64,000 nucleotides of DNA from Candidatus Parcubacteria bacterium (GCA_963718875.1 OY970378.1:754433-818432); one strand, 5' to 3'. Positions 9,080 to 34,713 are shown, numbered from the stretch's first letter. Made by a program: numbers and translations. Notes: generated from the letters alone by a model not told the origin.

Positions 9080-9092
9080 TTATGTGATATTA

Positions 9093-9169
<77 letters not shown>

Positions 9170-9510: not shown

Positions 9511-9586
9511 GCGGGTGTAGCTCAGCTGTTAGAGCGCTTCCTTGCCAAGGAAGAGGCCCAGGGTTAGAGTCCCTGTACCCGCACCA
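9511..9586 (+). tRNA. tRNA-Gly (anticodon GCC)
   Basis: Acceptor GCGGGTG/TACCCGC, anticodon stem CTTCC/GGAAG with loop TTGCCAA, T-arm CAGGG-TTAGAGT-CCCTG, CCA encoded. Confidence 0.75.
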
Positions 9587-9640
9587 TTTTAGCTAAACCG
9601 ACAAATACGCTGTGAAGCGTATTTTTGTTATGATAAGCAT

Positions 9641-10414: not shown

Positions 10415-10506
10415 GTACAAGCCCGGTTAAAAAATAATAAGTCCCTGTCTTTTTTTGATACTTCAGGAGTATAGGTCTACTATAGGTTTATCGACGAAGG
10501 AGTACT

Positions 10507-11106
10507 ATGAGAAAAATTATTGTCCAAGAATTCGTAACAATTGATGGCGTCATGCAGGCGCCAGGTGGTCTGGAGGAAGATACTACGGATGGATTTTCAT
10601 TCGGTGGTTGGCAAGCCCCATTTATGGACGATGACGCAGCCGAGGCAGTGACTGTACCAGCGCTAAAAGCCGACGTTGAATATTTATTGGGTGGATATAC
10701 CTTTGAGATATGGTCGGATTACTGGCCGAAACATCGCGATATTTGGCCATACATCAATGACAATATGAAATATGTACTTTCTGCGACAAAGACTGATACA
10801 GACTGGCAAAACACCACGTTCTTGCGAAGCGTTGAAGACATTACAAAGTTGAAGAACTCGGATGGTCCTGAACTCCACGTTTGGGGTAGCAGTAAGTTGG
10901 TGCAATTACTTCTTGCAAACGATCTTGTAGACGAACTCTGTCTTATGACCTATCCGATTATTCTTGGTCAAGGAAAAAAACTTTTTAGTGAGGGCGCAGT
11001 ACCCAGAACATTCCATCTCATCGAAAGTCATATAGGTAATAAAGGCGTAGTTGTGGCTCGTTATGCACGTGCGGGAGCAATTGAAACAGGGAATGTCGGT
11101 GAATAA
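10507..11106 (+). CDS. dihydrofolate reductase-like (RibD C-terminal domain family) protein
   Basis: MRKIIVQEFVTIDGVMQAPGG... opening and about 200 aa length characteristic of the DHFR-like deaminase-reductase family. Confidence 0.6.
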   Translation: MRKIIVQEFVTIDGVMQAPGGLEEDTTDGFSFGGWQAPFMDDDAAEAVTVPALKADVEYLLGGYTFEIWSDYWPKHRDIWPYINDNMKYVLSATKTDTDWQNTTFLRSVEDITKLKNSDGPELHVWGSSKLVQLLLANDLVDELCLMTYPIILGQGKKLFSEGAVPRTFHLIESHIGNKGVVVARYARAGAIETGNVGE

Positions 11107-11196
11107 TATCAATAGATCACTTTGCTCTCACATAAGTTACTGAGCGAAATGCTAGGCGCGCCTAGTAACAGACCATCCACAAGCGCATCAAAAAGT

Positions 11197-11478
11197 TTAA
11201 GTAAATTCTGTAAATCTGCACCAAATATCTGAATTATGAGCCGAAAGGCTCTTTTTCTTTGCCTCAACAATGGTTTTAAAGGGGTCGTTTAGTATATAAG
11301 ACAGCTTTTTGTCCTTTAACTCAATGTTTGAAAGTACGTATTCTAAAAGTTTCTGTCTTAGCCCCTCATCGCTCTCTTTAAACAGCTGGTCAGCCCGTTG
11401 AGCTAAGTCTAACAGGTAAGAAGCGGTTACTTGGAACTGCTTATTGTCGTTTGTTAGCAACTTTAGGCGGTCATTCAA
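11197..11478 (-). CDS. hypothetical coiled-coil protein
   Basis: 93-aa track ORF, divergent from csoR; no motif recognised. Confidence 0.35.
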   Translation of the reverse strand: MNDRLKLLTNDNKQFQVTASYLLDLAQRADQLFKESDEGLRQKLLEYVLSNIELKDKKLSYILNDPFKTIVEAKKKSLSAHNSDIWCRFTEFT

Positions 11479-11561
11479 TTCCTGCTGTTTCTTTTCTAGC
11501 TCAGTTGCAATTTCATCGTGGAATGTCTGTGCAATCCCCCTATCAACACCCTATTTGCATA

Positions 11562-11578
11562 GTACCCCTAGGGGGTAT
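11562..11578. promoter_or_regulatory. GC-palindrome operator candidate (CsoR-type box) upstream of csoR
   Basis: GTACCCCTAGGGGGTAT lies 13 nt upstream of the csoR ATG. CsoR operators in characterised systems are TA-flanked C-tract/G-tract palindromes. Confidence 0.45.
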
Positions 11579-11590
11579 ATAGTAGAGGCT

Positions 11591-11875
11591 ATGATAAGCG
11601 ATATAAAGCAACGAGCATTACACCGAGCCAAGATACTTGAGGGTCAAATGCGTGGCATCCAGAAAATGATTGACCAAGAGGATTACTGTATGGATATTCT
11701 TACTCAAAGCCTGGCAATCCAAAAATCTATTGGTTCGCTCAATAAGCTAATTCTTGAGAACCACGTGCGTACCCACGTCAAGGAAAGCCTCAATTCGGGC
11801 TCGGACAAAGAACAGGAAAAGTCAATTGATGAGCTACTGAAACTATACGAGCTATCTAATATAAGAAGTAAGTAA
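11591..11875 (+). CDS. csoR: CsoR/RcnR family metal-sensing transcriptional repressor
   Basis: Internal start MISDIKQRALHRAKILEGQMRGIQKMIDQEDYCMDILTQSLAIQKSIGSL, the DUF156 signature with the conserved Cys. The track ORF's N-terminal 49 aa are Cys/Phe-rich junk. Confidence 0.75.
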   Translation: MISDIKQRALHRAKILEGQMRGIQKMIDQEDYCMDILTQSLAIQKSIGSLNKLILENHVRTHVKESLNSGSDKEQEKSIDELLKLYELSNIRSK

Positions 11876-11883
11876 GGAGTAAA

Positions 11884-12321
11884 GTGATGAAAAAGGAAAG
11901 CATAATGGGAGGCGTAATCGGGCTACTTGTAGGTGTGATAATTACTGGATTTGCCGCAGGTCAAGCAGTGAATAACGACAATACGAGGATGATGCAGATG
12001 ATGGGTATGGACACGAAAAGAAGCCAGCAGCAAACTGCTACGAGCCACGACACTATGTCGATGGCCGATATGAACAAGGTGCTGGCGGGTAAAACTGACG
12101 ATGACTTTGATAAAGCATTCCTTGAAATGATGATTACACATCATCAGGGTGCAATTGATATGGCTAATCTCGCTCCTACACGTGCCAAACACGAAGAAAT
12201 AAAGACATTGAGCCAAGAAATTATAAAAGCTCAGAATAAAGAAATAACAGATATGCAACAGTGGCAGATGGACTGGGGTTATATGACGAGTGATAACTCA
12301 ATGCCAGGTATGAACCACTAA
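11884..12321 (+). CDS. DUF305 family protein (copper-resistance-associated, secreted or membrane-anchored)
   Basis: Met-rich N-terminal region and a DUF305 helix with HHQGAI motif. Confidence 0.7.
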   Translation: MMKKESIMGGVIGLLVGVIITGFAAGQAVNNDNTRMMQMMGMDTKRSQQQTATSHDTMSMADMNKVLAGKTDDDFDKAFLEMMITHHQGAIDMANLAPTRAKHEEIKTLSQEIIKAQNKEITDMQQWQMDWGYMTSDNSMPGMNH

Positions 12322-12323
12322 AA

Positions 12324-14336
12324 ATGGACCATTCGCACCACGAACATAAAGACACCGAACATCAAGAACACGATAAACACGCTGGTCATTCAGTAGCAAT
12401 GTTCAAAGATAAGTTCTGGTTGTCGTTGCTGCTTACTATACCTGTGCTTGTATATTCTGAGATGATACAGCACTGGTTCAACTTTACACCGCCTAGTTTC
12501 CTTGGCTATCAGTACGTACCATTTGTATTTAGTTCTATCATTTTCTTTTACGGCGGTTTAGTGTTTATAAAGAGTGCGTTAGGAGAACTAAGAGCCAAGC
12601 TACCAGGAATGATGACGCTCATCAGCTTGGCAATTATAACTGCATATGTTTACAGTGTCGCAACACAGTTTTTTATTAAGGGCGATGGTTTCTTCTGGGA
12701 ACTAGCTACCCTAGTAACCATTATGCTACTAGGTCATTGGCTTGAAATGGCATCGGTAGCTAAAGCAGAGAATGCACTTGACGCTATCTCAAAGCTGTTA
12801 CCTGATAAAGCCGAAAGGCTCGTAAAAGGCAAGGCAATACAGGTGTTAGTTAGTGAGCTGAAAGTTGGCGACCTAGTGCTGATACGACCTGGCGCAAGTA
12901 TACCCGTTGATGGCGTGATTGTAGAGGGCAGTTCATCTGTTGATGAAGCTGCTATCACTGGCGAGAGTAAGCCCGTAAGTAAAACCGTCAACGATGAAGT
13001 TGTTGCTGGTACAGGTAACCAAGACGGCTCGTTGACCGCAAAAGTTACAAAGCTAGGTCAAGATACGGCACTAGCTGGCATTATGCGTCTGGTCGCAGAA
13101 GCTCAAAAATCCAAATCTAACGTTCAGGTGCTTGCGGATAAAGCAGCGTTTGCACTTACTATCATCGCAATAGCAACAAGTATTATCACTTTTATCTATT
13201 GGCTCATTGCCAAAGACGCATCGTTCGCATTAGAGCGGTCAGTTACTGTTCTAATTATCGCTTGCCCACACGCACTAGGCTTGGCTATACCGCTGGTTGT
13301 TTCAATATCAACCGCCCTATCTGCTCGTAATGGTTTGTTAGTTCGCAATCGACTTGCTCTTGAAGCGGCTCGTAAGTTGGACTGGGTACTGTTTGATAAG
13401 ACAGGCACACTCACCAAAGGCGAACACGGCGTTACAGATGTGTGGGCTACAAAAGGCTATTCCGAGGAATACATACTACAGCTCACTGCCAGCCTTGAGC
13501 AAAATAGCGAGCATATTGTAGGTAAAGGCATTGTGCGAAAAGCCGAGAAGCAGCACGTCCATCTTGATAAAGTCGCTAACTTCAAAGCGTTGCCTGGCTT
13601 GGGCGTACAAGGCACTTTACACGGCAACGAGGTGTATATAGCAGCCAGCTATCGCTATATTGAAGAAAACAAGCTGACAGTTCCAACCGAAATAGCAAAG
13701 ATGGTCAAGCAAGCTGCCAAAGAAGGTAAGACAGAGGTGTATCTGATTATCAATAAAAAGGTTGTCGGTGCATTGGGCTTAGCTGACATAGTTCGTGAAC
13801 AATCCAAGCAGACAATCGTAACCCTCAAATCAATGGACATAAAGACAGCAATGATAACAGGTGACTCGGATGAGGTTGCAACTTACGTTTCAGAACAGCT
13901 TGGCTTGGACCAGTATTTTGCTGAGGTTAGACCAGAAGACAAAGCAGCAAAAGTCAAAGAATTGCAGAAAAACGGACAGCAGGTTGCGATGGTTGGCGAC
14001 GGCATCAATGATGCACCTGCGCTTACACAAGCCGATATTGGCATAGCTATTGGTGCTGGCACAGATGTAGCAATCAAGTCGGCTGATATTGTCTTGGTAA
14101 AAAGTGACCCTCAAGACGTGGTAAAGGTAATCAATCTTTCAAAAGCTACCTATAAGAAAATGGCTCAGAACCTAGTTTGGGCTACTGGCTATAACGTGTT
14201 TGCAATACCGCTTGCAGCTGGCGTTCTTTACGGGGCTAACATTGTTCTTGCTCCTGCACTCGGAGCTGTGCTTATGTCAGTCTCAACTGTTGTAGTGGCG
14301 TTCAACGCTCAGTTGCTCAGACGAGTAAAGCTGTAA
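12324..14336 (+). CDS. heavy-metal (copper) translocating P1B-type ATPase with His-rich N-terminus
   Basis: CPH transmembrane motif ([11 protein letters not shown]), DKTGTLT phosphorylation motif, GDGINDAP hinge, N-terminal [23 protein letters not shown]. Confidence 0.85.
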
Positions 14337-14463
14337 ATGCAGCTGGAATTGTTCAACGAGATGTTTTAACTTATAATCCTCTTGAGCGGTAATAGCGGAT
14401 GTTTGAAATGCGTCAACTATGCTGCACCGTTAGAGAAGTGTTTTTTTGTAAAGAAGATAAAGT

Positions 14464-15153
14464 ATGACCACAGAGCGTAATTCAACACAGAGCCCCAAAA
14501 GTAATGCCGCCAGTAATTCAGTTCGTACGCAGATACTGGCAACCGAACACTGGAGCCTTCTTGCAACACGTGGAATGACGTGGTCTGAGGTCATGAGTCG
14601 TATCACAATCCATCTCTCAATTATCTCTGCGTCATTGGTGGTACTTGCGTTAATTGCGCAAGTGTCTGGATTTGGCATTCCTTTTCGGATATTAGCTATA
14701 GGTTTAACAGTGGCAATATTAATTCTGGGGACACTAACGGGTGTTAGGGTTAAAAACGCCAGTATTGATGATACTTTTATGTTGCAGGGCATGAATCGAC
14801 TAAGGGCAGCATATATAGAGATGAATCCAGAAATTAAAAAGTATTTAGTTACGGAATACCACGATGACATGGCAGGTATTATGCAGTCATATCTTATGGG
14901 GGCTAGGCGTTCATTGCCCAGCCACATACTTGGTAGCACCAATATGTATATGCATATAGTTAATGCTCTTGTAGCTGGTACCTTAGGCGCTTTAGTTACA
15001 AATACGGCAGGTGAAGGTCCGTTGATTACAACTTTTATAGGATTGCTGACTGGAATTCTTTGTCTGCTTTGCTGGCTAGAAGTAGATCGAAGGTCGTTCC
15101 GTGCTGAGAAAATTACTGCTAACTTTCCAACCTCTAACTCTTCCCACAAATAA
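14464..15153 (+). CDS. hypothetical membrane protein
   Basis: 229 aa with several TM helices, co-directional with the ATPase. The fully overlapping antisense ORF 14430..15179 was judged less plausible. Confidence 0.45.
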   Translation: MTTERNSTQSPKSNAASNSVRTQILATEHWSLLATRGMTWSEVMSRITIHLSIISASLVVLALIAQVSGFGIPFRILAIGLTVAILILGTLTGVRVKNASIDDTFMLQGMNRLRAAYIEMNPEIKKYLVTEYHDDMAGIMQSYLMGARRSLPSHILGSTNMYMHIVNALVAGTLGALVTNTAGEGPLITTFIGLLTGILCLLCWLEVDRRSFRAEKITANFPTSNSSHK

Positions 15154-15271
15154 AAATAACGAACTCCCACAATTACCATAATATTTTAAGCCTGGTTGTT
15201 TTCTTCTTTTATTGAGCGATGACTTTCCGCGACCTGCTGTACTATATCTGGAATACCAGAAGAACAATTTA

Positions 15272-15293
15272 ACCCCCATGGGGGTGTTTTTTG
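15272..15293 (+). terminator. rho-independent terminator
   Basis: ACCCCCATGGGGGT hairpin followed by TTTTTTGTTTG. Confidence 0.6.
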
Positions 15294-15364
15294 TTTGAAA
15301 AATTGATTTTTATGACATTAAATGGTACTATAGTATTCTACCGATACGGAAGGAGGTGGTCCAG

Positions 15365-15718
15365 ATGGCCACCGATGTACAAGAAGAACTCAAGACGTTC
15401 GAGTTCAACTCTCACAACGTCAAGCAGGGCGACCGTTTCCACCTCGACCACGACGGCGGGCAAATAGTTATCGTCATCACTGACACGGAGTACAACGGAC
15501 GCAGCCACAACAGTCGCGACATCATTGGCATCGCCGCCGACCGCCAGGGCGAGTGGTGCGGACCCTGGGGTCGCATCATCTTCTACCACCCGATCGAGCT
15601 CGGAAAGGAGACAGACGCCACGTTCAACCAGCGTGGCGTCCACATTAAGCGACTCGAGGTGGTCCCTACCCAACTGGTCCGCGTACGCGACGGGAAACAC
15701 GAGCAGCTGCTCGGCTAG
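15365..15718 (+). CDS. hypothetical protein encoded in a high-GC island, driven by an AT-rich promoter
   Basis: GGAGGAGG RBS 7 nt before ATG; upstream TTGATT-N17-TATAGT; ORF visibly GC-rich; downstream 13-bp-stem terminator (GAGGCCCGCAGAA...TTCTGCGGGCCTC + TTTCTTG). Confidence 0.5.
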   Translation: MATDVQEELKTFEFNSHNVKQGDRFHLDHDGGQIVIVITDTEYNGRSHNSRDIIGIAADRQGEWCGPWGRIIFYHPIELGKETDATFNQRGVHIKRLEVVPTQLVRVRDGKHEQLLG

Positions 15719-15916
15719 TCGACAACGACAGACCGTTAGCGAGGCCCGCAGAAAGAGACCGCAGGAGTAGCCTCCTGTTTAGGCTCCTTCTGCGGGCCTC
15801 TTTCTTGTAATGTAAGTCCCACTTCCTTCGGCGTCCTTTCTGATTGCCTGTCACCTGCAAGGGATACTTAGGTGTTAAAATTAGTTAAGATAAACTTAAG
15901 GAAAAGGAGTATGAGG

Positions 15917-16297
15917 ATGGCTAAGTATGTTGATGGATTTGTACTTGTAGTGCCCAAAGGAAAAGAAGCCGAATACCAAAAAATGGCAGAAATGGGACGT
16001 GATTCCTGGATCAAGCACGGTGCGCTTCAATACTTTGAGTGCAGAGGGGATGACCTTAAGCAGCAGGAAATGGGTGACGAAAAATCACGAGATTTTGCCG
16101 AAATGGCTAATGCAAGTGGCGATGAAAATGTCTGGTTTTCGTTTATTGTGTTCAACTCCAAAGAACACCGTAATGAAGTAAACAAAAAAGTTATGGATGA
16201 AATGAATGAAAAAGCTGAAGCACAACCTGATTTTTCAATGCCAGTTGATATGAAGAAGATGGCATATGGAGGGTTTGCGGTAGCAGTTGAAGGATAA
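15917..16297 (+). CDS. DUF1428 family protein
   Basis: MAKYVDGFVLVVPKGKEAEYQKMAEM... matches the DUF1428 N-terminus; AAAGGAG RBS upstream of the internal ATG. Confidence 0.6.
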   Translation: MAKYVDGFVLVVPKGKEAEYQKMAEMGRDSWIKHGALQYFECRGDDLKQQEMGDEKSRDFAEMANASGDENVWFSFIVFNSKEHRNEVNKKVMDEMNEKAEAQPDFSMPVDMKKMAYGGFAVAVEG

Positions 16298-16424
16298 GTC
16301 GAAGATTACGTTGCTCACTTGACGAGCAGACCGCAAAAGACAGTCATGCCGCAGAAACCAAGATTCGCAGAATCGAAAAAATTATAAGCCAGGTGTAAGC
16401 TCAATTTCGATTATCCAGCTAAAG

Positions 16425-16697
16425 CTATTTGTTTGGGTGGTCTTTTGCCCAGGCAACAATCTTGTTATCGCCACTAATTGCTGACCCGTCATCCAGGAGC
16501 AAAACCGGAACATAGTATGAGCCTGTTAACGCGAACACTTCTCTTCGGACTTTGAGCTGTAGAAACTTTGGCAGATGCTCTTGTCCCCTGGCTTTTTGTA
16601 TCTCGGGGTCATAGTTGACTTCCTTTAACGCTCGGTAAGCTTTGGTACAAGGATGATGGTCGCTTCCACCATTACTCCAGCAAATATATAATTTCAT
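16425..16697 (-). CDS. thioredoxin-fold protein (glutaredoxin-like / GST N-terminal-like)
   Basis: 90 aa, MKLYICWSNGGSDHHPCTKAYRAL... pattern of a Grx-like fold without a CxxC pair. Confidence 0.45.
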   Translation of the reverse strand: MKLYICWSNGGSDHHPCTKAYRALKEVNYDPEIQKARGQEHLPKFLQLKVRREVFALTGSYYVPVLLLDDGSAISGDNKIVAWAKDHPNK

Positions 16698-16817
16698 AAG
16701 TTGTATTATACAATAGGTCGCTAGGTTTTTACCGTTCTCGCATTAGCTCTAGCGAGATGCGTTTACCTGCTCATAAAAAATGCTACTTTATATAATTACC
16801 TTGACAGTCATAGTAAT

Positions 16818-17162
16818 ATGACATACGTTATAACCATGCTTAAAAAAATATCATCGGATTTACTTCGTGGCCACACAGACAGCATCATCCTTAAACTTTT
16901 GTTGGATGGCGATAAGTATGGTTACGAAATTACAAAACTCGTTCACGAGCATTCGAATAAACTTTATGAGCTAAAAGAAGCAACTATGTATTCGAGTTTG
17001 AAGCGGCTAGAGAATGACGCCCGCATCACGTCTTACTGGGGAAACGAAACGCAAGGCGGTAGGCGCAAGTATTATCGTGTCACTGAAAGGGGCCTGGAAT
17101 TGTACAAAGACAACAAGCAAAACTGGGATTACGCGAAGCAGATCTTAAATGAATTATTATAA
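16818..17162 (+). CDS. PadR family transcriptional regulator
   Basis: PadR winged-helix signature (LLRGHTDSIILKLLLDGDKYGYEITKLV...YSSLKRLE). Confidence 0.75.
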   Translation: MTYVITMLKKISSDLLRGHTDSIILKLLLDGDKYGYEITKLVHEHSNKLYELKEATMYSSLKRLENDARITSYWGNETQGGRRKYYRVTERGLELYKDNKQNWDYAKQILNELL

Positions 17163-17174
17163 GAAGGGGAAATA

Positions 17175-17954
17175 ATGGAAAAAAAATTACAGACATTCAT
17201 CAGCGAGGCTTTTGCTCCATATGGAGAGTTTCCGGCGCGAGCTGACGTTTCACAAGAGTTGCTCGCTAATTTGCAGGAAAAATTTAATGATCTAAAAAAG
17301 CAAGGCAAGACTGATGAAGCGGCATACCAGGCCACCATTGATTCGTTTGGCGATATTGCCGAAATCATGGAGCATATCCCGCACAACGAGCCAGCCAGCG
17401 AGGCAAAGGCGAATACCAAGTTGAGGGGCTCAGCTCTCAAGCAGGCTGATCTTGCTGGAGCAAACCTCTCTGCAACCGATCTGAGCGCAAGTGATATGTC
17501 GGGAGCTAACTTTGATGGGGCGAACTTAGCCAAAACCCAGCTTAGAGCTTCGGCGCTACAAGGTTCGAGCTTTATTGATGCAACCCTAACAGGAGCTATT
17601 TTTAACAGTAGCGATCTGCGTAATGTGTGCTTCGACAGAGCTGACCTTACTGGAGCTGTTCTCAAAGCCTCGGGCTTAAGGGGTGCAACATTTGAGGGCG
17701 CAACTTTAGTGCGAACAGATTTTAGCCGCTCAGACTTAACCGAAGTTTCTTTTGACGGTCAGGTTCTTGAAGAGGTACTGTTTGATAGTGCTTCACTCAA
17801 GAAAACATCGTTTAAAGGTGCAACTCTTCGCAATGTATCATTCCATCACACAGCTGTTAAACATGCAATATTCGATGGGACAGCGATGGACAAAGTGACC
17901 TTTGCCATTTTGAAGGGAGCTAAAGCTGTGCTGGACAATGTTGTTGTTTCATAA
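17175..17954 (+). CDS. pentapeptide-repeat protein with N-terminal PadR-associated helical domain
   Basis: Long run of A(D/N)LxG-type pentapeptide repeats (ADLAGANLSATDLSASDMSGANFDGANLAKTQL...). Confidence 0.7.
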   Translation: MEKKLQTFISEAFAPYGEFPARADVSQELLANLQEKFNDLKKQGKTDEAAYQATIDSFGDIAEIMEHIPHNEPASEAKANTKLRGSALKQADLAGANLSATDLSASDMSGANFDGANLAKTQLRASALQGSSFIDATLTGAIFNSSDLRNVCFDRADLTGAVLKASGLRGATFEGATLVRTDFSRSDLTEVSFDGQVLEEVLFDSASLKKTSFKGATLRNVSFHHTAVKHAIFDGTAMDKVTFAILKGAKAVLDNVVVS

Positions 17955-18180
17955 GGTACTCTCACATATTTTTTTGAAGAATAGGTTTTCTTTGTAAGGT
18001 GTTATAAATATTGACCTCCAACGAGCTAAGCTGCCTGCTGATGAGGTGAAGTGGGATTTGAGGGACTTTGTTACCATCGGATTTTCCTGATAGCCAGTGT
18101 TGCAAAGAACTTGATGCCCCCTCCTCTAGACCCGGCGGTCTGAAAGAGGGGGCATCTTAGGTTGTAAGCTACTGTTAGAG

Positions 18181-19119
18181 CTACCCCTGGTCAAGGCCTC
18201 CGTCAAAGCGGCTTCTATCGACTGACGGATCGTTGGCGGATACCACCGCTTGAACGCCCGTATCCGGTGTGCCGCCGGGAGGCGGTGGAGCATCGAGGGC
18301 GAACTCTGCCGGCGTCGGTATAGGAGGCCTTGGGTGTCGACCGATGCCTTCAATTGCCTTTTCGACCGTCCTATTGGCAGCCTCCGTGAACCTTGCAAGC
18401 TGACGCTCAAGCGCACCGTACCGCGCCTCACTCAGATCGAGTTGCTCACGCAGATCGGCGTTGATTCGCTCCTGCGCCGACAGGTCTTCCAGTGCTTGGC
18501 CATGAGTCTGCACCAGCTCCCGGACCCTTGCCAAGAGAATTTGCAACTGACCTTCTCGAGCCGCCAGGTCAGACGCGATCGACTCGACCATCTCTAGGAG
18601 ATCGGCGACGGTGGGCTGGGGGTTGGGTACATCTACGTCTTCCCGTCCCTGTTCTACGATCGCTGGCGAGTGGGCACGAACTTCCTGGAGGACTGCTCTC
18701 CTGATGTCCGCAAGCTCTACCCCTAGCTTGACCAGAACTTGGCATCCTACTGCATCTTCGTCTCTGAGTAGGCCGAGCAGGATGTGCGCTGGGGTTATGA
18801 CCTCACTCTCGCTCGGCCCTTGAGGCGGCACTAGAAGAGCTTCACGTACCGACAGCTCGAGAACCTTTTTGGCTCGAGGAGTAAAAGGAATGCGGCCGCT
18901 AGGCGATGATTCTCCCAGACCAATGTCCTCCTCTACTTGCTTTCGGACGCATCCGAGAGTAACCCCGAGTCCGTCGAGGACACTGGCCGCGTCTCCTCCT
19001 TCTCGGATCAAGCCGAGCAGGATGTGCTCGGAACCGATGTAGCTGTGGTGGAGCTGGCGCGCCTCCTCCTGAGCCAAGACGACGACACGTCGGGCACGTT
19101 CGGTGAATCGTTCGTACAT
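18181..19119 (-). CDS. Clp N-terminal (Clp_N repeat) domain protein with coiled-coil and Pro-rich C-terminus; high-GC island gene
   Basis: Two Clp_N repeats (FTERARRVVVLAQEEARQLHHSYIGSEHILLGLIRE... and ...ITPAHILLGLLRDED), no AAA+ domain; strongly GC-rich codons. Confidence 0.65.
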   Translation of the reverse strand: MYERFTERARRVVVLAQEEARQLHHSYIGSEHILLGLIREGGDAASVLDGLGVTLGCVRKQVEEDIGLGESSPSGRIPFTPRAKKVLELSVREALLVPPQGPSESEVITPAHILLGLLRDEDAVGCQVLVKLGVELADIRRAVLQEVRAHSPAIVEQGREDVDVPNPQPTVADLLEMVESIASDLAAREGQLQILLARVRELVQTHGQALEDLSAQERINADLREQLDLSEARYGALERQLARFTEAANRTVEKAIEGIGRHPRPPIPTPAEFALDAPPPPGGTPDTGVQAVVSANDPSVDRSRFDGGLDQG

Positions 19120-19498
19120 TTTCGGTCCCCCTTAGGGATCGGTGCTACTCGGTTGGGATGGTACTCGCAAAAGCTGTATGAGGCTGGTTTGACCTCACAA
19201 AAAACGCCAATATATTTTACTGCTTTTGGGCGTTTGTGTCAAAAATAATTGTTTGTGAATCTTGAAACCCCTTAAACTTTTTGTCATCCTCCGACTTGAT
19301 CGGAGGATCTCGGCTAGATTCCCTACCCGGAGCGCCAAGCCAGGTAATAGTTGGGCTTGGCTTTCCGATAGGGAATGACACAAAATGGTGTGTTGATAAT
19401 TGCATTTGCCCTGTCTGCCGAGCCACTTTGAGAGTGACCCGGCAGACAGCATTGGACGATGGACTTCACTACTTGGTTTGCTTGGACTGATGAGGGGG

Positions 19499-20494
19499 CT
19501 AGCGAGGAGTAACCGCCCGGCGGATGTTACCCACCAAGTCTCCGGCCACCATCTCCGCCGCTAGGCCAACGGCGTTGAAGATAGCACGGCTCGATGCAGA
19601 GCCGTGGCTGATGATGCAGACCCCGTCGACGCCCAACAGAGCGGCGCCGCCGTAGGTGTCGGGGTCAAGCTCAGCTTGCAGAGGCAGGAGAGCCGGCAAC
19701 AGGACCTTGGTGGCCTCGCGAGCCTCCTCAGTTGATGTCATCGCTCGGAGAAGGGCGTCAACAACCACCCGAACGGACCCTTCGAGGGTCTTGAGGACGA
19801 CGTTGCCGGTGAATCCGTCGGTAACCACCACATCGGCCGCGTCAGTCAGGACGTCACGGCCTTCCACGTTGCCTATGAAGCGGCCTACCGATAGGGCGCC
19901 TGCCTCAGCCAGCAGGGCATGCGCCCCTTTGACCAGTTCGTTGCCCTTGCTTTTCTCCTCTCCGATGGAAAGGAGCCCAACGGTCGGCTCGTCCTTGCCC
20001 AGACGCAAAACGGCGTAGGCCGCCCCCATCTGAGCAAACTGCAACAGCCAGGGCGGCGTGCACTCGGCGTTGGCTCCACTGTCGAGGAGGACAGTGGGAC
20101 TGGAGCCGGGTACGGGGAGCATTGTAGCGATAGCCGGACGGGCAACGCCGGCGATGCGACCCATGCGAAGCAAGGCACTAGCCATAGCCGCACCGGTATT
20201 TCCGGCACTCACCATGGCACTGGCTCGCCCGTCGCGTACCGCTTCGGCTGCTCGCACCATACTGGCGTCCTTCTTGCGTCGGACTCCCTGCATGGCATCG
20301 TCACCCATTTCGATGACCTCGCTCGCGGGCCAACATTCGAGATCACCGGTGTGGAGTTCTTGCAATACTTCGGCTTGACCAACCAGAACCACGGGGACGC
20401 CGAACCGCTCTGCGGCCTCGCGGGCACCTGCCACAATCTCTCCGGGGCCTTTGTCACCCCCCATCACGTCTACTGCAATCGGTAGCTCTGGCAT
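19499..20494 (-). CDS. plsX: phosphate acyltransferase PlsX; high-GC island gene
   Basis: PlsX signatures (IAVDVMGGD..., GNTGA, DGFTGNVVLK, ISHGSAS); GC-rich codon usage. Confidence 0.85.
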   Translation of the reverse strand: MPELPIAVDVMGGDKGPGEIVAGAREAAERFGVPVVLVGQAEVLQELHTGDLECWPASEVIEMGDDAMQGVRRKKDASMVRAAEAVRDGRASAMVSAGNTGAAMASALLRMGRIAGVARPAIATMLPVPGSSPTVLLDSGANAECTPPWLLQFAQMGAAYAVLRLGKDEPTVGLLSIGEEKSKGNELVKGAHALLAEAGALSVGRFIGNVEGRDVLTDAADVVVTDGFTGNVVLKTLEGSVRVVVDALLRAMTSTEEAREATKVLLPALLPLQAELDPDTYGGAALLGVDGVCIISHGSASSRAIFNAVGLAAEMVAGDLVGNIRRAVTPR

Positions 20495-20610
20495 TTTCTG
20501 CTCCTTCCGTAGAGCATCGTCGGGACAACAAAAAGGCGCTCACTTTTGATGTGCGCTCACCTTGCGCACAATAATAGCATATGTAAAGGGAAAAACGAAC
20601 TTGATTAAGC

Positions 20611-20650
20611 GATCCTGAAACGACCGTCAGTTGACGGTTCAGGATGACAA
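20611..20650. repeat. 40-bp palindromic repeat element, copy A (GATCCTGAAACGACCGTCAGTTGACGGTTCAGGATGACAA)
   Basis: 39/40 identical to the copy at 39647-39686. Internal palindrome ACCGTCA-GT-TGACGGT. Ends in GGATGACAA, the reverse complement of TTGTCATCC at 19281-19289. Confidence 0.6.
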
Positions 20651-20725
20651 GCAGAATGAAGGGTTGGGAATCTGATGCGCTCAAGGTATAATCATAAACA
20701 GTTTTCTCTTCGTATTTCTAAGTGC

Positions 20726-20799
20726 GGCACCGTGGCGGAGTGGCTACGCAGAGGTCTGCAAAACCTTTTACACCGGTTCAATTCCGGTCGGTGCCTCCA
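20726..20799 (+). tRNA. tRNA-Cys (anticodon GCA)
   Basis: Acceptor GGCACCG/CGGTGCC, anticodon stem GAGGT/ACCTT with loop CTGCAAA, T-arm ACCGG-TTCAATT-CCGGT, CCA encoded. Confidence 0.7.
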
Positions 20800-20855
20800 T
20801 ATTTTTACAAAGTAAAAATATGTCCTGAGCGTAGTCGAAGGACAGAAATTTTCAA

Positions 20856-21104: not shown

Positions 21105-21123
21105 TGGTCTCCGGGGTGGGATT
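21105..21123 (-). other. partial copy of the tRNA-Leu(TAA) 3' end (possible integration scar)
   Basis: Reverse complement AATCCCACCCCGGAGACCA vs the true 3' end AATCCCACCCCGGGCACCA located 147 bp away, same orientation. Confidence 0.4.
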
Positions 21124-21269
21124 GTGGCTAGCGCCACCTTCCTGTGGTGCTCGGCTCAACCTACACTCCTCGCCTGCCTTCCGGCAGGCAGGTCCACCGA
21201 ACCTAAGGTTCTCATCCATCTTTCACGCACCAATGATATTTCCTTAGCTAAAAGCTACGGGAATATCAT

Positions 21270-21354
21270 TGGTGCCCGGGGTGGGATTCGAACCCACAAG
21301 CCAATATGGCAACGGATTTTAAGTCCGTCGTGTATACCGTTCCACCACCCGGGC
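21270..21354 (-). tRNA. tRNA-Leu (anticodon TAA), long variable arm
   Basis: Reverse-complement fold: acceptor GCCCGGG/CCCGGGC, anticodon stem ACGGA/TCCGT with loop CTTAAAA, T-arm GTGGG-TTCGAAT-CCCAC, CCA encoded; 85 nt. Confidence 0.7.
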
Positions 21355-23150: not shown

Positions 23151-23180
23151 CATAATTCATAATTCATAATTCATAATTCG
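23151..23180. repeat. tandem heptanucleotide repeat (CATAATT)x4
   Basis: CATAATTCATAATTCATAATTCATAATTCG read directly, 20 bp upstream of a -35 element. Confidence 0.8.
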
Positions 23181-23202
23181 CAAGAGTTCCCCTATTGACA
23201 GT

Positions 23203-23238
23203 TCGGTTTATGTTCGGTTATAATTTGTCCTAAGGACC
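23203..23238 (+). promoter_or_regulatory. sigma70-like promoter (TTGACA-N17-TATAAT)
   Basis: TTGACAGTTCGGTTTATGTTCGGTTATAATTTG upstream of the 23289 ORF. Confidence 0.5.
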
Positions 23239-23288: not shown

Positions 23289-23549
23289 TTGATAAAAGGA
23301 GGTGTCATGAACAAACCCTTAGACATGTTGGTAGAGTTTGATATGAATGGTAATGCCAAGCCGCTGGTAATGCAGTGGCAAGGACGGGGCATTCGCTTCC
23401 GCGAAATTGCCTGGTGCCGCAAAGAATGGCAAGGTAATATTTTGCATCACCTGTTTGGGGTAAGGGACGAGACCAGCCTGTATACTTTAGACTTTAATAC
23501 TGGCACCTGTGATTGGAGCGTCGCCAAAGTCCAACGAGCGGTTGCCTGA
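23289..23549 (+). CDS. hypothetical protein
   Basis: 86-aa track ORF with AAAGGAGG RBS before an internal Met (MNKPLDM). Confidence 0.4.
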   Translation: MIKGGVMNKPLDMLVEFDMNGNAKPLVMQWQGRGIRFREIAWCRKEWQGNILHHLFGVRDETSLYTLDFNTGTCDWSVAKVQRAVA

Positions 23550-23564
23550 CAAGCTTACTTACAT

Positions 23565-23733
23565 ATGTATACTGTTTATGCTCTCCGAAGCCAAGTAAGA
23601 GACTACATATATGTGGGTTTTTCGAATAAATTTAGCCACAGAGTCCATCAACACAACTCTGGCCAATCCAAAGCTACTAGACCTTTTCGTCCTTACACTG
23701 TAATTTATAGCAAGGACTTCCGTCTCGAATAAA
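23565..23733 (+). pseudogene. GIY-YIG nuclease family (UPF0213-like) gene fragment, apparently truncated or frameshifted
   Basis: My translation: MYTVYALRSQVRDYIYVGFSNKFSHRVHQHNSGQSKATRPFRPYTVIYSKDFRLE-stop. GIY...YIG core present, but the C-terminal half continues in another frame (NAREFEKYLKSGVGRQYLRSFET). Confidence 0.4.
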
Positions 23734-23802
23734 TGCTCGGGAGTTTGAAAAATATCTCAAGTCTGGAGTAGGTAGGCAATACTTAAGAAGCTTTGAGACT
23801 TA

Positions 23803-23888
23803 GGGCGAGTGGTGAAATGGTATACACGCTAGATTCAGGTTCTAGTGAGCGCAAGCTCGTGGAGGTTCGACTCCTCTCTCGCCCACCA
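23803..23888 (+). tRNA. tRNA-Leu (anticodon CAG), long variable arm
   Basis: Same acceptor/D-arm as the tRNA at 3878; anticodon stem CTAGA/TCTAG with loop TTCAGGT; T-arm GGAGG-TTCGACT-CCTCT; CCA encoded. Confidence 0.7.
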
Positions 23889-23910
23889 ATTACCACTCAA
23901 ATGTGCTGAA

Positions 23911-23959
23911 AAACGCTAGACCTGCCTGCCGGCAGGTTCGACTCCTCTCCGCGGCACCA
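23911..23959 (+). pseudogene. degenerate pseudo-tRNA-Leu copy immediately downstream of tRNA-Leu(CAG)
   Basis: ACGCTAGA (D-arm end) + CCTGCCTGCCGGCA + GGTTCGACTCCTCTC (T-arm identical to the tRNA) + CGCGGCACCA; anticodon and variable regions deleted. Confidence 0.45.
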
Positions 23960-24045: not shown

Positions 24046-24942
24046 ATGAGCGTCGAAGAACAGCTAAAAGTTTACTTTGGTCTCAGCAATGTAGTTTGCA
24101 GAGATCTAAACACTTTGGCCAACTATGCCGCTGAAGTAACGACTCCAAGCGGCCACTTTGCCCTTAAACTGTATAATCCAGCCTCTCGAACTGGCAGCGA
24201 AGTCCAATGGGAACTGGATTTAACCCTGCACCTGATAGAAAACAATGTTCCCGTAGCGAAACCCGTTGCCGGAAAAGACGGATATTTGGCGACTTTTATC
24301 GTAGATGGCCAGGAGCGTCCAGCGGTTTTGTTCGAATGGGCGGCAGGCGAAAAACCTAAGCCGAACTTAAGTACCTATAGTTTAATCGGGGGAGCCGCTG
24401 CGCAAATACATAACGCTGCCGATACTTTTACGTCAAAGATATTCCGCGAGAAATACGATGCACACGAACTTATAGACGATCAACTTAAGCGAATTAAAGC
24501 ACCGCTTGAGGAAAGCGGTCAGTGGCAGCGAGTTTTTGAGTTAACAGAACGGATGCGGAAAATTATAATAAACCCTAGCCTCGACTACGGAATTATTCAC
24601 AATGATTTAACACTTGATAATGTCCACCTCAACGGTAATGCAATAACTGTCTTTGACCTGGACAGCGCAGGTGAGTCTTGGCGAGCAGTGGAGCCATGGG
24701 GTGTTCTTAGAGCTTCGGAGGATCGCTTCAGAGCTTGGCTCGAGGGCTACCGCACAATTAGAGAGTTTGGTCAAGACGATGAAAGGGCGGTAGCGGCTTT
24801 TGGAATTGTCGAGGACATTAGAAATGTTGTCTGGAAGCTTGGCTTTGCGAAATCATCGCGCGGGAAACCTTTGATGCAAACAACCGACCTACCGAAGGTA
24901 GTTGATGAATGGATAGAGTGGGAGCTAGAAAAGTCACTTTAG
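24046..24942 (+). CDS. phosphotransferase family protein (APH/ChoK/homoserine-kinase-II-like kinase fold)
   Basis: Brenner motif HNDLTLDNVHL and a DLD metal-binding motif. Confidence 0.65.
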   Translation: MSVEEQLKVYFGLSNVVCRDLNTLANYAAEVTTPSGHFALKLYNPASRTGSEVQWELDLTLHLIENNVPVAKPVAGKDGYLATFIVDGQERPAVLFEWAAGEKPKPNLSTYSLIGGAAAQIHNAADTFTSKIFREKYDAHELIDDQLKRIKAPLEESGQWQRVFELTERMRKIIINPSLDYGIIHNDLTLDNVHLNGNAITVFDLDSAGESWRAVEPWGVLRASEDRFRAWLEGYRTIREFGQDDERAVAAFGIVEDIRNVVWKLGFAKSSRGKPLMQTTDLPKVVDEWIEWELEKSL

Positions 24943-24962
24943 TTTAAGGGATTTTGAAGCAA

Positions 24963-24990
24963 TTGTCAGCTGACTGTTTTAGGATGACAA
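24963..24990. repeat. degenerate third copy of the 40-bp palindromic element
   Basis: TTGTCAGCTGACTGTTTTAGGATGACAA vs consensus CGTCAGTTGACGGTTCAGGATGACAA. It keeps the GTCAG..CTGAC palindrome and the GGATGACAA terminus. Confidence 0.3.
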
Positions 24991-24999
24991 TAAAACTAG

Positions 25000-25806
25000 T
25001 TAAATATCTAGTGTCACGCTGACCGGGGCGTGATCAGAGCCCATAACATCAGGATGGATCTTGGCCTCGACAACCTTTGATTTGAGGGAGGCTGAAACCA
25101 TAACATAATCAATCCGCCAGCCAACATTATTGGCACGGGCATTAGCCCATTGAGTCCACCAGCTGTAATGGCCGGAACCTTGGGTAAATATACGGAAGCT
25201 ATCTACGAAGCCAGCCTTGAGAAAGTTCTCAAATCCTTTACGCTCTTCCATCGTAAAGCCTTTTTTTCCTTCGTTGGGTTTGGGCCGAGCTAGGTCGTCT
25301 GACGTGTGGGCAACATTAAGATCGCCGCAAAAGATTACAGGCTTGGTTTTTTCTAGCTCTTTGCAATAAGCCAAAAAGGCTGGGTCCCAGTGGTCGTGCC
25401 GTAGCGGTATACGGCTTAAATCGTCTTTGGAATTTGGCGTGTAAACCGTAATCAAATAAAATTTATCAAATTCAGCAGTTAAAACTCTCCCCTCCCGGGC
25501 TGCGTCGCGAGTTTGGCCATCAACAAAACTGTATTTATTGGCAAAGCTATCAGGAAAGCCTTTTATAACTTTGAGAGGCTTGGTTTTACTCAAAATGCCT
25601 GTACCGGAGTAGCCGGCTTTGTCGGCCGAGTTCCAGTACTGACTATACCCGGGTAGGTTAAGTACTGATTGCTCCTCTGTGGCCTTAGTCTCTTGTAGAC
25701 AAACTATGTCGGGCTGCTCGCCTTCAATGAATGGTTTCCACAGCTCTTTGCGTACCACAGCCCGAATACCATTAACGTTCCATGAATAAAGTTTAATTTT
25801 TGCCAT
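25000..25806 (-). CDS. xth: exodeoxyribonuclease III
   Basis: MAKIKLYSWNVNGIRA... and the full EEP-fold ExoIII motif set (..QETK.., ..GDLNVAH.., ..SDHAPV..). Confidence 0.85.
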   Translation of the reverse strand: MAKIKLYSWNVNGIRAVVRKELWKPFIEGEQPDIVCLQETKATEEQSVLNLPGYSQYWNSADKAGYSGTGILSKTKPLKVIKGFPDSFANKYSFVDGQTRDAAREGRVLTAEFDKFYLITVYTPNSKDDLSRIPLRHDHWDPAFLAYCKELEKTKPVIFCGDLNVAHTSDDLARPKPNEGKKGFTMEERKGFENFLKAGFVDSFRIFTQGSGHYSWWTQWANARANNVGWRIDYVMVSASLKSKVVEAKIHPDVMGSDHAPVSVTLDI

Positions 25807-25873: not shown

Positions 25874-25907
25874 CGGATCCGGAGTGGCTAAAGCCTTTTG
25901 GTCCTGG
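25874..25907. repeat. 34-bp junction motif shared (inverted, 30/34 identical) with 39596-39629
   Basis: CGGATCCGGAGTGGCTAAAGCCTTTTGGTCCTGG vs the reverse complement of the 39.6 kb copy CGGATCCGGAGCGGCTAAAGCCTTCCGGTCCGGG. Confidence 0.5.
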
Positions 25908-25970
25908 ACGACAAAGTGATGAAGGGCGGTCGCTTGCGAGCGACCGCCCTTCCGGAGCAGATCCGACAGG

Positions 25971-26312
25971 TCAGCCCACCGGAACAAAGACACAGCTGAA
26001 ACCATTCAGGAGCGCGCTGCTGACGATCACCGTCCCGTTCTGGATCCTGACAGCCGGGTCGTCAAACATTTCGGTACCTTCAGAGGTTTCGACGCTGAGG
26101 CGGACGCAGTTTGGCGTCCTGATGACAGTCACTTCTACAACCGTCGCGAACGAGATTCTTGATCCGGCGGCAGCACCCGCAACAGTGGCGACGATCGTAA
26201 CCTCTTCTTGAAGGAGAGCCGACTTGATCGCCCTGATGACTTCTTTGTGCTCTCGGTCCGAGCCTTGTAGCCGTAATTCCTCCAAGTAGGGCTCAGTGGC
26301 TTGGGTGGGCAT
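25971..26312 (-). CDS. hypothetical protein, high-GC island gene
   Basis: 113-aa GC-rich ORF. It is followed on its 3' side by a perfect 13-bp-stem hairpin (GAAGGGCGGTCGC-TTGC-GAGCGACCGCCCTTC, 25921-25953). Confidence 0.45.
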   Translation of the reverse strand: MPTQATEPYLEELRLQGSDREHKEVIRAIKSALLQEEVTIVATVAGAAAGSRISFATVVEVTVIRTPNCVRLSVETSEGTEMFDDPAVRIQNGTVIVSSALLNGFSCVFVPVG

Positions 26313-33560: not shown

Positions 33561-33635
33561 GAGGTATATAGCTCAGCGCCCCTCGACATTTTGCTACTTT
33601 CATCTATCCGTCCTGCCAACCCAAGGAGCATTTCC

Positions 33636-34184
33636 GTGACTGTGACCCAGACCCGCCCTGCCCCCCTCACCGAGGACGAGGAGCGGCTCATTGCAAAGCT
33701 CATCACCAACCCGCGAGTGCCCAGCCGAGACGTGGCTCGCCTCCAATTGGACGACCTCGAGGTTGTCCGCCGTACCCTGTTCTTCGTCACCCGCGACCTG
33801 GCTACCCAGCCCCCCACGCTGCATCCCGTCATCGTGGTACAGCCGAAGCAGGTGCAGACGCTCCCCGCCAACCTGGAAGAGCTTGAGAGGCTGGTCCACG
33901 ACCTCTACTCGAAGCTGGAAGAGTTGAAGGCCATCGTGCCGCAGATTCTCGCCGGCCGGATCGACACCTGCCTCTCGAACGCCGTTGAGGCCTACGGAGA
34001 CACGCAGCGTTTGTTGAGGTGGATCGACAGGGCCAAGGACCTGATCAAGCTGATCGAGTCCAACCCGATGTTCCGATCGACCACGCCTCCGGCTGTCGAT
34101 CTCGACGCACTCAAGGCTCGCGACGCCAAGCTGAGTACCACCCCCAAGAAGCCCCGTTTCAAGAAGGGCAAGAAGCAGAAGTAG
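33636..34184 (+). CDS. hypothetical protein, high-GC island gene abutting the IS30
   Basis: AAGGAG RBS + GTG start at 33636; GC-rich; C-terminal Lys-rich tail. Many spurious antisense ORFs overlap it. Confidence 0.4.
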   Translation: MTVTQTRPAPLTEDEERLIAKLITNPRVPSRDVARLQLDDLEVVRRTLFFVTRDLATQPPTLHPVIVVQPKQVQTLPANLEELERLVHDLYSKLEELKAIVPQILAGRIDTCLSNAVEAYGDTQRLLRWIDRAKDLIKLIESNPMFRSTTPPAVDLDALKARDAKLSTTPKKPRFKKGKKQK

Positions 34185-34188
34185 CAAC

Positions 34189-34713
34189 ATGTTCGAGCGT
34201 CCCGGCCGGTGCCCCACGTGGGTGCCGGTCGGGCCTCCGACCCAACGTCTGAAGTCACTTGAGGCTTTAGGTCGAGGTTCAATTGACAGCTGCAAATATC
34301 AGCGATATGGTTTGAGACGTCCACCGCACATCCCACAAGGAGGTAGTACATACGATAACCAGCTGCTAATAAGTCCGGAGGATGTAATCGGCTGGAGCAA
34401 CGAGTTTGAATATCGCTCGCTTCAGCTGTTCGTCTCCGTCCAAGGTGTCACGCATTTCATTGGTAGTGTCGGCCCATGCGCCCAGCGTTGCGGCATTTGC
34501 CGAGACACCCACTACTACGCCAAGAATTGCAACGGGTTGCCAGTTAAACCCGATAACGGCTACGGCTTCAATTCGGGAAGAAGTGCCGTCGTGGCTCTGC
34601 TCGAACAAAGCCGGTTCTACGCCCACAAAGGCAGATGGCTAAACCAAAGCCAATGGGATCGGCTGCAGCGCAAGCTACCTCACCAGCAGCCTAAGCGTTG
34701 GTACTCGCTGTAA
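34189..34713 (+). CDS. hypothetical Cys-containing protein (coding status uncertain)
   Basis: 174-aa track ORF of mixed composition; no convincing start/RBS identified. Confidence 0.25.
   Translation: MFERPGRCPTWVPVGPPTQRLKSLEALGRGSIDSCKYQRYGLRRPPHIPQGGSTYDNQLLISPEDVIGWSNEFEYRSLQLFVSVQGVTHFIGSVGPCAQRCGICRDTHYYAKNCNGLPVKPDNGYGFNSGRSAVVALLEQSRFYAHKGRWLNQSQWDRLQRKLPHQQPKRWYSL

Follow-up and report, generated by a model that had tools for sequence, protein, structure and literature searches.

A tRNA-Leu(CAG) gene followed by the 3' remnant of a different tRNA-Leu(CAG) allele in a Saccharimonadales genome

What kind of event leaves an incomplete tRNA copy directly behind an intact tRNA gene is the question raised by the locus described here, which lies in a stretch of 64,000 nt (hereafter the window; Candidatus Parcubacteria bacterium, GCA_963718875.1 OY970378.1:754433-818432) from a Saccharimonadales genome of the Candidate Phyla Radiation (CPR), with a GC content of about 45%. 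ARAGORN finds seven tRNA genes in the 64-kb window, and one of them, tRNA-Leu(CAG), is followed on the same strand by a short sequence, called here fragment A, in which the T arm of the gene is repeated. An earlier note on this DNA had regarded the pair as an intact gene with a degenerate copy left by the insertion of an integrative element. We found that fragment A is the non-functional 3' remnant of a different tRNA-Leu(CAG) allele and, almost certainly, the footprint of a recombination at the DNA level in the 3' part of a tRNA gene.

Fragment A and the tRNA-Leu(CAG) gene beside it

The elements of the pair, and the paralogue to which the intact gene is compared below, are the following:

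23803-23888, plus strand: tRNA-Leu(CAG), functional-looking (ARAGORN; Rfam RF00005, 54.5 bits)
23889-23912, plus strand: spacer, 24 nt between the end of the tRNA and ACGCTAGA
23913-23959, plus strand (23911-23959 with an extra AA; 47-49 nt): pseudo-tRNA fragment A, with a 16-nt exact repeat
3878-3963, plus strand: tRNA-Leu(GAG), paralogue (ARAGORN; acceptor, D and T stems and 7 nt of leader in common with tRNA-Leu(CAG))

Both the intact gene and the partial copy described earlier are real, since the former is called by ARAGORN and Rfam and the latter contains, at 23934-23949, the sequence AGGTTCGACTCCTCTC, an exact 16-nt repeat of 23863-23878 (BLAST against the window, E = 0.001). The gap between them had been given as 23 bp, and is instead 24 nt if measured to ACGCTAGA, or 22 nt with the extra AA assigned to the fragment. 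Reading from its 5' side, fragment A consists of ACGCTAGA (23913-23920), which corresponds to the junction of the D stem and the anticodon stem of the tRNA, of a hairpin, GACCTGCC/TGCC/GGCAGGTT (23919-23938), of the 16-nt repeat and of the tail CGCGGCACCA (23950-23959), which ends in CACCA. The spacing of the tail is that of a tRNA, with a T loop (TTCGACT), a T stem strand (CCTCT), a 7-nt acceptor strand (CCGCGGC), a discriminator A and CCA; the 5' acceptor strand and the anticodon arm are both missing. In the spacer, GTGCTGAA (23903-23910) is a possible remnant of the D-arm sequence GTGGTGAA, though the likeness is weak (local alignment, p = 0.07 against shuffled sequences).

The pseudo status of the copy was confirmed, as ARAGORN calls the intact gene and not the fragment, and Rfam, with the tRNA model included, gave no match to it at E <= 10. 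Moreover, the 49-mer folds no better than shuffled sequences (z = -0.78). A second functional tRNA at 23911-23959 is thus ruled out by the lack of these calls and of paired cloverleaf parts, and other known RNAs (signal recognition particle RNA, tmRNA, RNase P RNA) are ruled out by the lack of any Rfam match even at that permissive threshold.

The last 26 nt of fragment A agree at 25 of 26 positions with the tRNA-Leu(CAG) of a related locus, L037, compared to 21 of 26 with the adjacent live gene, a value that is among the lowest across the 14 tRNA-Leu genes compared; fragment A, therefore, comes from another allele. The two acceptor strands, CCGCGGC in the fragment and CTCGCCC in the live gene, differ at 5 of 7 positions, and that of the fragment is unable to pair with GGGCGAG, the 5' strand of the live gene. 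The earlier statement that the T-arm/3' region had been reused exactly holds, as a consequence, for the 16 nt of the T arm but not for the acceptor strand. From the T arm to CCA the resident allele reads ...CTCTCGCCCACCA, and the site of the fragment and L037 type reads GGTTCGACTCCTCTCCGCGGCACCA.

In L037, tRNA-Leu(CAG) is positioned and oriented as it is in the window, on the strand opposite to the FAD oxidase gene and 110 nt upstream of it, and its acceptor stem is GCCGCGG/TCGCGGC. No fragment is present 3' of this gene in L037, which is the closest relative keeping that tRNA in position.

The acceptor stem of the live gene in the window, GGGCGAG/CTCGCCC, is found also in the tRNA-Leu(GAG) of the window. 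When the flanks are counted, tRNA-Leu(CAG) shares 89-90% identity with 3871-3964, and the two genes are exactly the same from base -3 to base +30 and in the final 16 nt. In another relative, L038, both the CAG and the GAG isoacceptors carry a lineage-specific acceptor stem, GCGCGAG. Lineage-specific stems common to the CAG and GAG genes, in the window and in L038, indicate concerted evolution, and the comparison points to gene conversion between the two paralogues, so that the live tRNA-Leu(CAG) looks converted or replaced. A further 13-nt match to the tRNA-Leu 5' end, at 15546 within a GC-rich coding region, was treated as chance.

tRNA fragments recur in the order and coincide with synteny breakpoints

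Fragments of tRNA genes recur in the Saccharimonadales, and coincide with breakpoints of synteny. Two of them are found in the window itself, next to other tRNA genes:

21270-21354, minus strand: tRNA-Leu(TAA) (ARAGORN, Rfam)
21105-21200, minus strand: pseudo-tRNA fragment B (repeat match to the 3' end of tRNA-Leu(TAA), and a hairpin motif in common with fragment A)
9036-9079, plus strand: partial 5' copy of tRNA-Val(TAC), shortly before the gene (exact over 16 nt, of which 3 belong to the leader)

The 3' end of tRNA-Leu(TAA) forms with its trailer a 23-bp hairpin (arms at 21227-21249 and 21253-21275). Fragment B ends in AATCCCACCCCGGAGACCA (21105-21123), which matches the 3' end of tRNA-Leu(TAA) at 17 of 19 positions, and folds into a four-way junction (z = -2.9). 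It contains GGACCTGCCTGCCGGAAGG (21177-21199), a hairpin motif as in fragment A, and the two fragments have an exact match of 14 nt (p < 0.004). The earlier note had placed a second occurrence of the motif CCTGCCGGCAGG at 21170-21190; it is indeed present, at 21177-21188, but with one mismatch, and is part of a 23-nt inverted match of 87%. In the 5' copy of tRNA-Val, TTAGGGCGATTAGCTC is followed by a 6-bp hairpin (9052-9067), which replaces the D loop, and then by CTAGAGCGC (p = 0.002).

Similar remnants were observed in the relatives. In L037 the final 20 nt of tRNA-Leu(TAA) and the final 19 nt of tRNA-Gly are repeated exactly downstream of each gene, in L021 15 nt of tRNA-Leu(CAG) are repeated, and L038 contains a decayed tRNA fragment that aligns to the D region at 19 of 25 positions (p = 0.04). 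Considering the window and the related loci together, copies of the last 16 nt (with up to 2 mismatches) were found within 350 nt downstream of 4 of 39 tRNA genes and upstream of none of the 39, save for the adjacent Cys and Phe genes, which match each other at 3 mismatches; fragment A and the decayed L038 copy are two further cases beyond these four. Identity extends from the T loop (positions 57-58) to CCA in fragment B and in both L037 copies, the three clearest cases, and it starts at about position 51 (T stem) in fragment A and at about positions 60-62 in L021 and L038.

The six 3' fragments vary widely in length and content and, when compared, gave 0 consensus pairs and no common structure, which, together with the lack of a fragment after the L037 tRNA, indicates that fragment A is not conserved as a gene or as a structured RNA. 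They have in common the short motifs GGTTCGGTGG, GCGAGGAGTG and GACCTGCCTGCCGG. The hairpin CCTGCC...GGCAGG occurs in fragments A and B and in a further locus, L042, and also in unrelated viral contigs. The palindrome CCTGCCTGCCGGCAGGCAGG was considered as a specific mobile element and rejected, because it is present in unrelated viral contigs of 45-68% GC that are free of tRNA, as expected of a generic hairpin.

The block Phe-Gly-RibD_C...PadR-pentapeptide is inverted in the window with respect to L037, and its ends fall at fragment B and at the tRNA-Val fragment, so that the breakpoints of this region are at tRNA genes. The cluster of tRNA genes Cys-Leu(TAA)-Phe-Gly, which is contiguous in L037 (7034-10319), is split and partly inverted in the window (9093-20800), and about 11 kb of accessory genes, for CsoR, DUF305, a P-type ATPase, PadR and a pentapeptide-repeat protein, lie between its parts. 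In the leader of tRNA-Phe (9205-9300) an extra GA-rich stretch of about 85 nt separates the conserved promoter (GGTATGAT) from the tRNA, the corresponding distance in L037 being about 24 nt.

Nuclease genes beside tRNA genes

Upstream of tRNA-Leu(CAG), between this gene and the FAD oxidase gene, the following features were found:

23195-23224, plus strand: promoter of sigma-70-type consensus (TTGACA, 18 nt, TATAAT; hexamers match 12/12; predicted function)
23307-23549, plus strand: ORF86, 80 aa from the ATG at 23307, first gene of the FAD oxidase-to-tRNA block
23565-23803, plus strand: single-domain GIY-YIG nuclease pseudogene, about 79 aa, with one frameshift near 23726 (PF01541)

The frameshifted GIY-YIG open reading frame (ORF) recognised earlier was borne out by the profile search, in which the PF01541 score of 37.6 bits (23565-23732) rises to 49.4 bits when the frameshift is bridged, the match then covering positions 1-70 of the 78 in the profile; its two frames are both visible by tblastn. 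The stop codon TAG (23801-23803) shares its G with base 1 of tRNA-Leu(CAG). Three GIY-YIG homologues were compared, and the GIY/YIG, Arg, His-Asn and Glu columns do not vary among them. Only two homologues of this gene were found in databases, at 47% and 44% identity, and both adjoin a tRNA on the same strand. In L042 the order is tRNA-Arg, a terminator, a 5' fragment of tRNA-Arg (19/22) fused to the hairpin CCCTGCCTGACTTAAGGCAGG and a T run, and then the GIY-YIG gene; in L043 the GIY-YIG gene lies 134 nt after the tRNA. A nuclease of another family shows the same arrangement in L036, the closest relative by FAD oxidase (67% identity), where a 155-aa HNH endonuclease (HNH_3, 30 bits) is encoded at 5159-5626 on the minus strand, and its stop codon TAG overlaps base 1 of tRNA-Leu(TAA) (5075-5159, minus strand). 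Relatives of the GIY-YIG gene were searched for in phage genomes and viral contigs, and none was found.

The consensus promoter lies upstream of ORF86, of the GIY-YIG gene and of tRNA-Leu(CAG). ORF86 has no match in Pfam, NCBIfam or PHROG. The block formed by ORF86 and the GIY-YIG gene is missing at the syntenic site of L037, where, as mentioned above, the FAD oxidase gene and the tRNA are 110 nt apart. We also looked upstream of this block for a displaced 5' half of the former tRNA (GCCGCGGTGGTG...), and did not find it. The intergenic DNA that separates the consensus promoter from the FAD oxidase gene contains four tandem copies of CATAATT (23151-23178).

A nuclease gene next to tRNA genes has been described in phage T4, in which SegB, a GIY-YIG homing endonuclease, is encoded inside a tRNA gene cluster, recognises a 27-bp site (GGTTCRANTCC...CCAR) that corresponds to the segment from the T arm to CCA, and spreads itself together with the neighbouring tRNA genes, replacing the neighbouring tRNA alleles (PMC2330249). 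It has also been reported that SegB drives a tandem segmental duplication of a tRNA and a truncated segB (PMC13096335). The window resembles the T4/T6 system in several respects: a GIY-YIG gene directly adjoins tRNA genes, the segment recognised by SegB is the one that is duplicated in the window, and the phage system, with its replaced tRNA alleles and its duplications of a tRNA with a truncated nuclease gene, offers a counterpart to what is seen here. On the other hand, SegB belongs to a phage and has, in addition to its catalytic domain, a part that binds DNA, whereas the gene in the window is chromosomal, about 79 aa long, frameshifted and not detectably similar to phage families, and the fragments of the window are not multi-copy tandem arrays. 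Compared with homing endonucleases in general, the gene has the catalytic domain of the superfamily and is present or absent among relatives next to its putative target, but a separate DNA-binding domain is lacking. The resemblance to SegB would thus concern a possible way of working, and not membership of a family.

In the window a nuclease gene adjoins the tRNA, no element lies between the repeats and no integrase is encoded by the scanned ORFs. We give an even chance to the explanation that fragment A is a scar left where one allele replaced another, at a hot spot of tRNA rearrangement, the most likely agent being a nuclease. In this case an allele with the acceptor stem GCCGCGG/CCGCGGC, the type found at the syntenic site of L037, would once have occupied the locus or donated a piece to it. 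A double-strand break, or a recombination, would have occurred in the T arm-to-CCA segment of the tRNA gene, and repair from a paralogous or foreign template would have produced the present allele, physically fused to the block of ORF86 and the GIY-YIG gene. The displaced 3' part would have been left 24 nt downstream, its middle swapped for a GC-rich hairpin of the type that recurs in such fragments, and the same process could have generated the T loop-to-CCA fragments behind other tRNA genes of the order. The agent most compatible with this scheme would be a small free-standing nuclease (GIY-YIG here, HNH in L036), acting on tRNA genes in a homing-like manner comparable to that of T4 SegB. 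From the arrangement of the locus we infer the mechanism of break and repair, the direction in which the allele was replaced, and whatever activity the nuclease may have.

Several points weigh against this explanation. The databases contain no close relative, so that the empty site and the direction of the change are not directly visible, and, as the tRNA-Leu(CAG) of L038 carries an acceptor of the GAG type and that of L037 differs, the two relatives do not decide which allele is ancestral. The likeness of the spacer to the D region of the tRNA is, as said, weak. The adjacency of nuclease and tRNA genes concerns four loci only, three with GIY-YIG and one with HNH, and no nuclease gene adjoins fragment B, the two L037 copies, or the fragments of L021 and L038. 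In addition, the GIY-YIG ORF consists of a catalytic domain only, frameshifted and without a DNA-binding domain of the SegB type, and it has no match to phage homing-endonuclease families.

A plain tandem duplication of the tRNA gene, which would require neither a nuclease nor an integrase, seems to us a rather doubtful alternative. The downstream copy, cut off by a terminator, would have decayed through deletions and insertions of hairpins, and a later conversion by tRNA-Leu(GAG) would have changed only the acceptor of the live gene. This would account for the order of the pieces in fragment A (GTGCTGAA, ACGCTAGA and the T arm), which is that of the tRNA, and is consistent with the D-region alignment of the L038 fragment and the partial 5' copy of tRNA-Val, with the acceptor stems of Leu(CAG) and Leu(GAG) evolving in concert in two lineages, and with the strong hairpins directly 3' of live tRNAs. 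At the tyrT locus of E. coli, repeat units of 178 bp each contain the last 19 nt of tRNA-Tyr, and this is similar to the present case in that copies of the tRNA 3' end lie on the same strand downstream of the gene without an integrated element; however, tyrT is a regular array of near-identical units with a small ORF, whereas the fragments here are single, heterogeneous and hairpin-bearing. Uniform decay is also at odds with the two L037 copies, in which the 19-20 nt between the T loop and CCA are matched perfectly, whereas the sequence immediately 5' of them is no more similar than expected by chance. Moreover, a tandem duplication leaves unexplained both the adjacency of GIY-YIG or HNH genes to tRNAs and the hairpin motif common to A, B and L042.

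The variable interval, the kinase and the integrase reading

An integrative element, as proposed in the earlier note, has to be weighed together with the genes that surround the pair, which lie in the interval bounded by the SBP gene and the FAD oxidase gene. The additional features of the window and the contents of the interval in four loci are:

24046-24942, plus strand: APH-family kinase gene (PF01636, 70.4 bits; cut-off 23.2)
24951-24991, plus strand: degenerate 40-nt hairpin repeat, similar to repetitive extragenic palindromic (REP) sequences (alignment; family at 20611-20650 and 39647-39686)
Interval in the window: ORF113, exonuclease III-type nuclease (Pfam Exo_endo_phos), kinase, fragment A, tRNA, GIY-YIG gene, ORF86
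Interval in L024: tRNA-Leu(TAA), 2',5' RNA ligase, kinase, dehydrogenase
Interval in L037: one 178-aa ORF
Interval in L038: Big_13 protein and sortase

The backbone UvrC-holin-SecG-SBP ... FAD oxidase is kept in L037, whose FAD oxidase shares 65% identity with that of the window, L037 and L038 being about equally distant from it. In sequence collections the nearest homologue of the kinase has 82% identity and that of the FAD oxidase 67%, and a scan of genome contigs gave relatives at 50% and 39% protein identity. The content of the interval differs among the window, L024, L037 and L038; the interval that holds the kinase is hypervariable. ORF82 was considered as a homologue of the conserved orf111, which lies 3' of the FAD oxidase gene in relatives, and rejected, since there is no similarity.

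The kinase had been correctly recognised as APH-like; it scores below the NCBIfam cut-offs for homoserine kinases. At E <= 1e-10 it has 250 homologues, with 61-82% identity among the 120 matches listed, and an identical kinase occurs in ERR12037361, with one Logan contig carrying it. The family is common in Saccharimonadales, though the gene is not syntenic in the relatives, its neighbourhood being different in nearly every one of them and including, in some, transposase, relaxase and serine-recombinase genes. In the window it lies downstream of both repeat copies, outside the pair. Two APH-kinase paralogues (5433-6359 and 8852-9775) are found in L035 on either side of an ABC-F ATPase, and in L026 the kinase occurs with MFS, methyltransferase and zeta-toxin-like genes, contexts that hint at an antibiotic-related role.

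The degenerate 40-nt repeat reported at the end of the kinase gene does follow its stop codon directly, at about 24951-24991. The REP-like families of the window are located at 20611-20650, 39647-39686 and 24951-24991, at 25874-25914 and 39587-39627, and at 20814-20837; they have conserved ends (TTGTCATCC...GGATC) and variable palindromic cores, and are found at gene ends, namely after the kinase, between the start of the exonuclease III-type gene (25000-25806) and ORF113, and after tRNA-Cys. The hairpins of A, B and L042 resemble REP-like extragenic repeats, of which the window thus holds its own families, in being GC-rich and placed at gene ends, but they are fused to tRNA fragments and not free-standing. 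Gene-sized patches of 57-63% GC were observed at 4049-4816, 15338-15718, 18181-19119, 19499-20494, 25971-26312, 33600-34295 and 38800-39564, and include the genes of a Clp_N-domain protein and of PlsX; they look like imports of single genes from high-GC donors, perhaps actinobacterial hosts.

According to the integrase explanation, which we consider unlikely, an integrative element with tRNA genes as its targets would have undergone recombination in the T loop, giving two copies of the T loop-to-CCA segment as attachment sites (attL/attR), later deletions would have left about 50-150 nt, and the kinase and its neighbours would have arrived with such elements. Attachment (att) sites at tRNA genes classically show blocks of identity that run from the T loop to CCA, and such blocks are present in fragment B, in the two L037 copies and in L021. 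Other points in its favour are the large serine recombinase genes that adjoin tRNA-Pro in L029 and tRNA-Gly in L038, the position of the L029 kinase, 5.5 kb from the serine recombinase and beside RadC, and of the L026 kinase, near IS1595 and relaxase genes, the occurrence in two high-GC viral contigs of an isolated tRNA 3' part identical to the end of the tRNA-Leu(TAA) of the window, and the hypervariability of the SBP-FAD oxidase interval. Against it, no integrase or recombinase domain was found in the 49 window ORFs scanned, and the two copies lie 71 nt apart, start to start, with only the spacer and the hairpin between them. Since 5 of the 7 acceptor positions of fragment A differ, a one-step exchange would give a mismatched acceptor stem; the 3' ends of tRNA-Leu(CAG) and of fragment A are not in IMG/VR; and several independent and near-complete deletions would be needed.

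The locus does share with attL/attR duplications the direct repeat of a tRNA 3' part, from the T arm to CCA (16 nt exact in A, 17/19 in B), and a region of variable gene content. It differs from them in that no element or integrase lies between or beside the copies, which are closely spaced and have unlike acceptor strands, and in that the copy is not compatible with the 5' half of the tRNA. A kinase carried as cargo between att sites is ruled out by the geometry and by the lack of a recombinase. What remains of the integrase footprint proposed earlier is, therefore, a recombination footprint in a variable region, and not an att pair bounding the kinase.

The serine recombinase ORFs of L029 (379-2017) and L038 (8754-10363) overlap in antisense, with their called 3' ends, tRNA-Pro and tRNA-Gly, respectively; the other end of these regions was examined for a further copy of the tRNA 3' end, and none was found within the available sequence. 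Phage att sites with the 3' end of tRNA-Leu(CAG) were likewise sought in IMG/VR, with none found, and all the matches to the tRNA-Leu(TAA) end were in contigs of high GC. These are L040 (69-91) and L041 (953-975), both from IMG/VR and of 63-67% GC, where GTGGGTTCGAATCCCACCCCGGGCACCA equals the 3' end of the tRNA-Leu(TAA) of the window without a full tRNA, and looks like an att site.

It is highly improbable that the fragments are instead functional RNAs, that is, tRNA-like 3' modules (e.g. co-transcribed processing or decoy elements) with a 3' end matched by selection to the tRNA beside them, for, even if the copies match their own tRNA although the acceptor stems differ between genomes (fragment B of the window vs L037), B folds into a four-way junction and short motifs are held in common, the six sequences have no consensus structure or covariation, no Rfam match was obtained, fragment A folds like its shuffles and has an acceptor strand unmatched to its tRNA, the syntenic tRNA of L037 has no fragment after it, and lengths and contents are very variable.

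Taken alone, fragment A is an ordinary object, the remnant of a tRNA gene, and, should the lead to a nuclease fail, the allele replacement that we favour would reduce to a tidy but unremarkable recombination scar. Its acceptor strand, unlike that of the live gene, records an earlier or foreign allele, and indicates that the tRNA-Leu genes of this lineage were replaced or converted and not simply inherited. The presence of T loop-to-CCA fragments at synteny breakpoints suggests that tRNA genes may be where this reduced CPR genome is mainly rearranged and gains genes. A wider proposal, which we put forward as doubtful, is that single-domain GIY-YIG and HNH genes, in Saccharimonadales and other bacteria, are chromosomal homing-type elements targeting cellular tRNA genes, which would cut between the T arm and CCA, drive allele replacement, leave hairpin-bearing scars and make tRNA genes breakpoints for rearrangement and gene acquisition. 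If this were true, they would be a cellular counterpart of phage SegB and, with GIY-YIG or HNH genes lying beside tRNAs at four loci, the targeting of tRNA genes in the manner of SegB may extend beyond phages.

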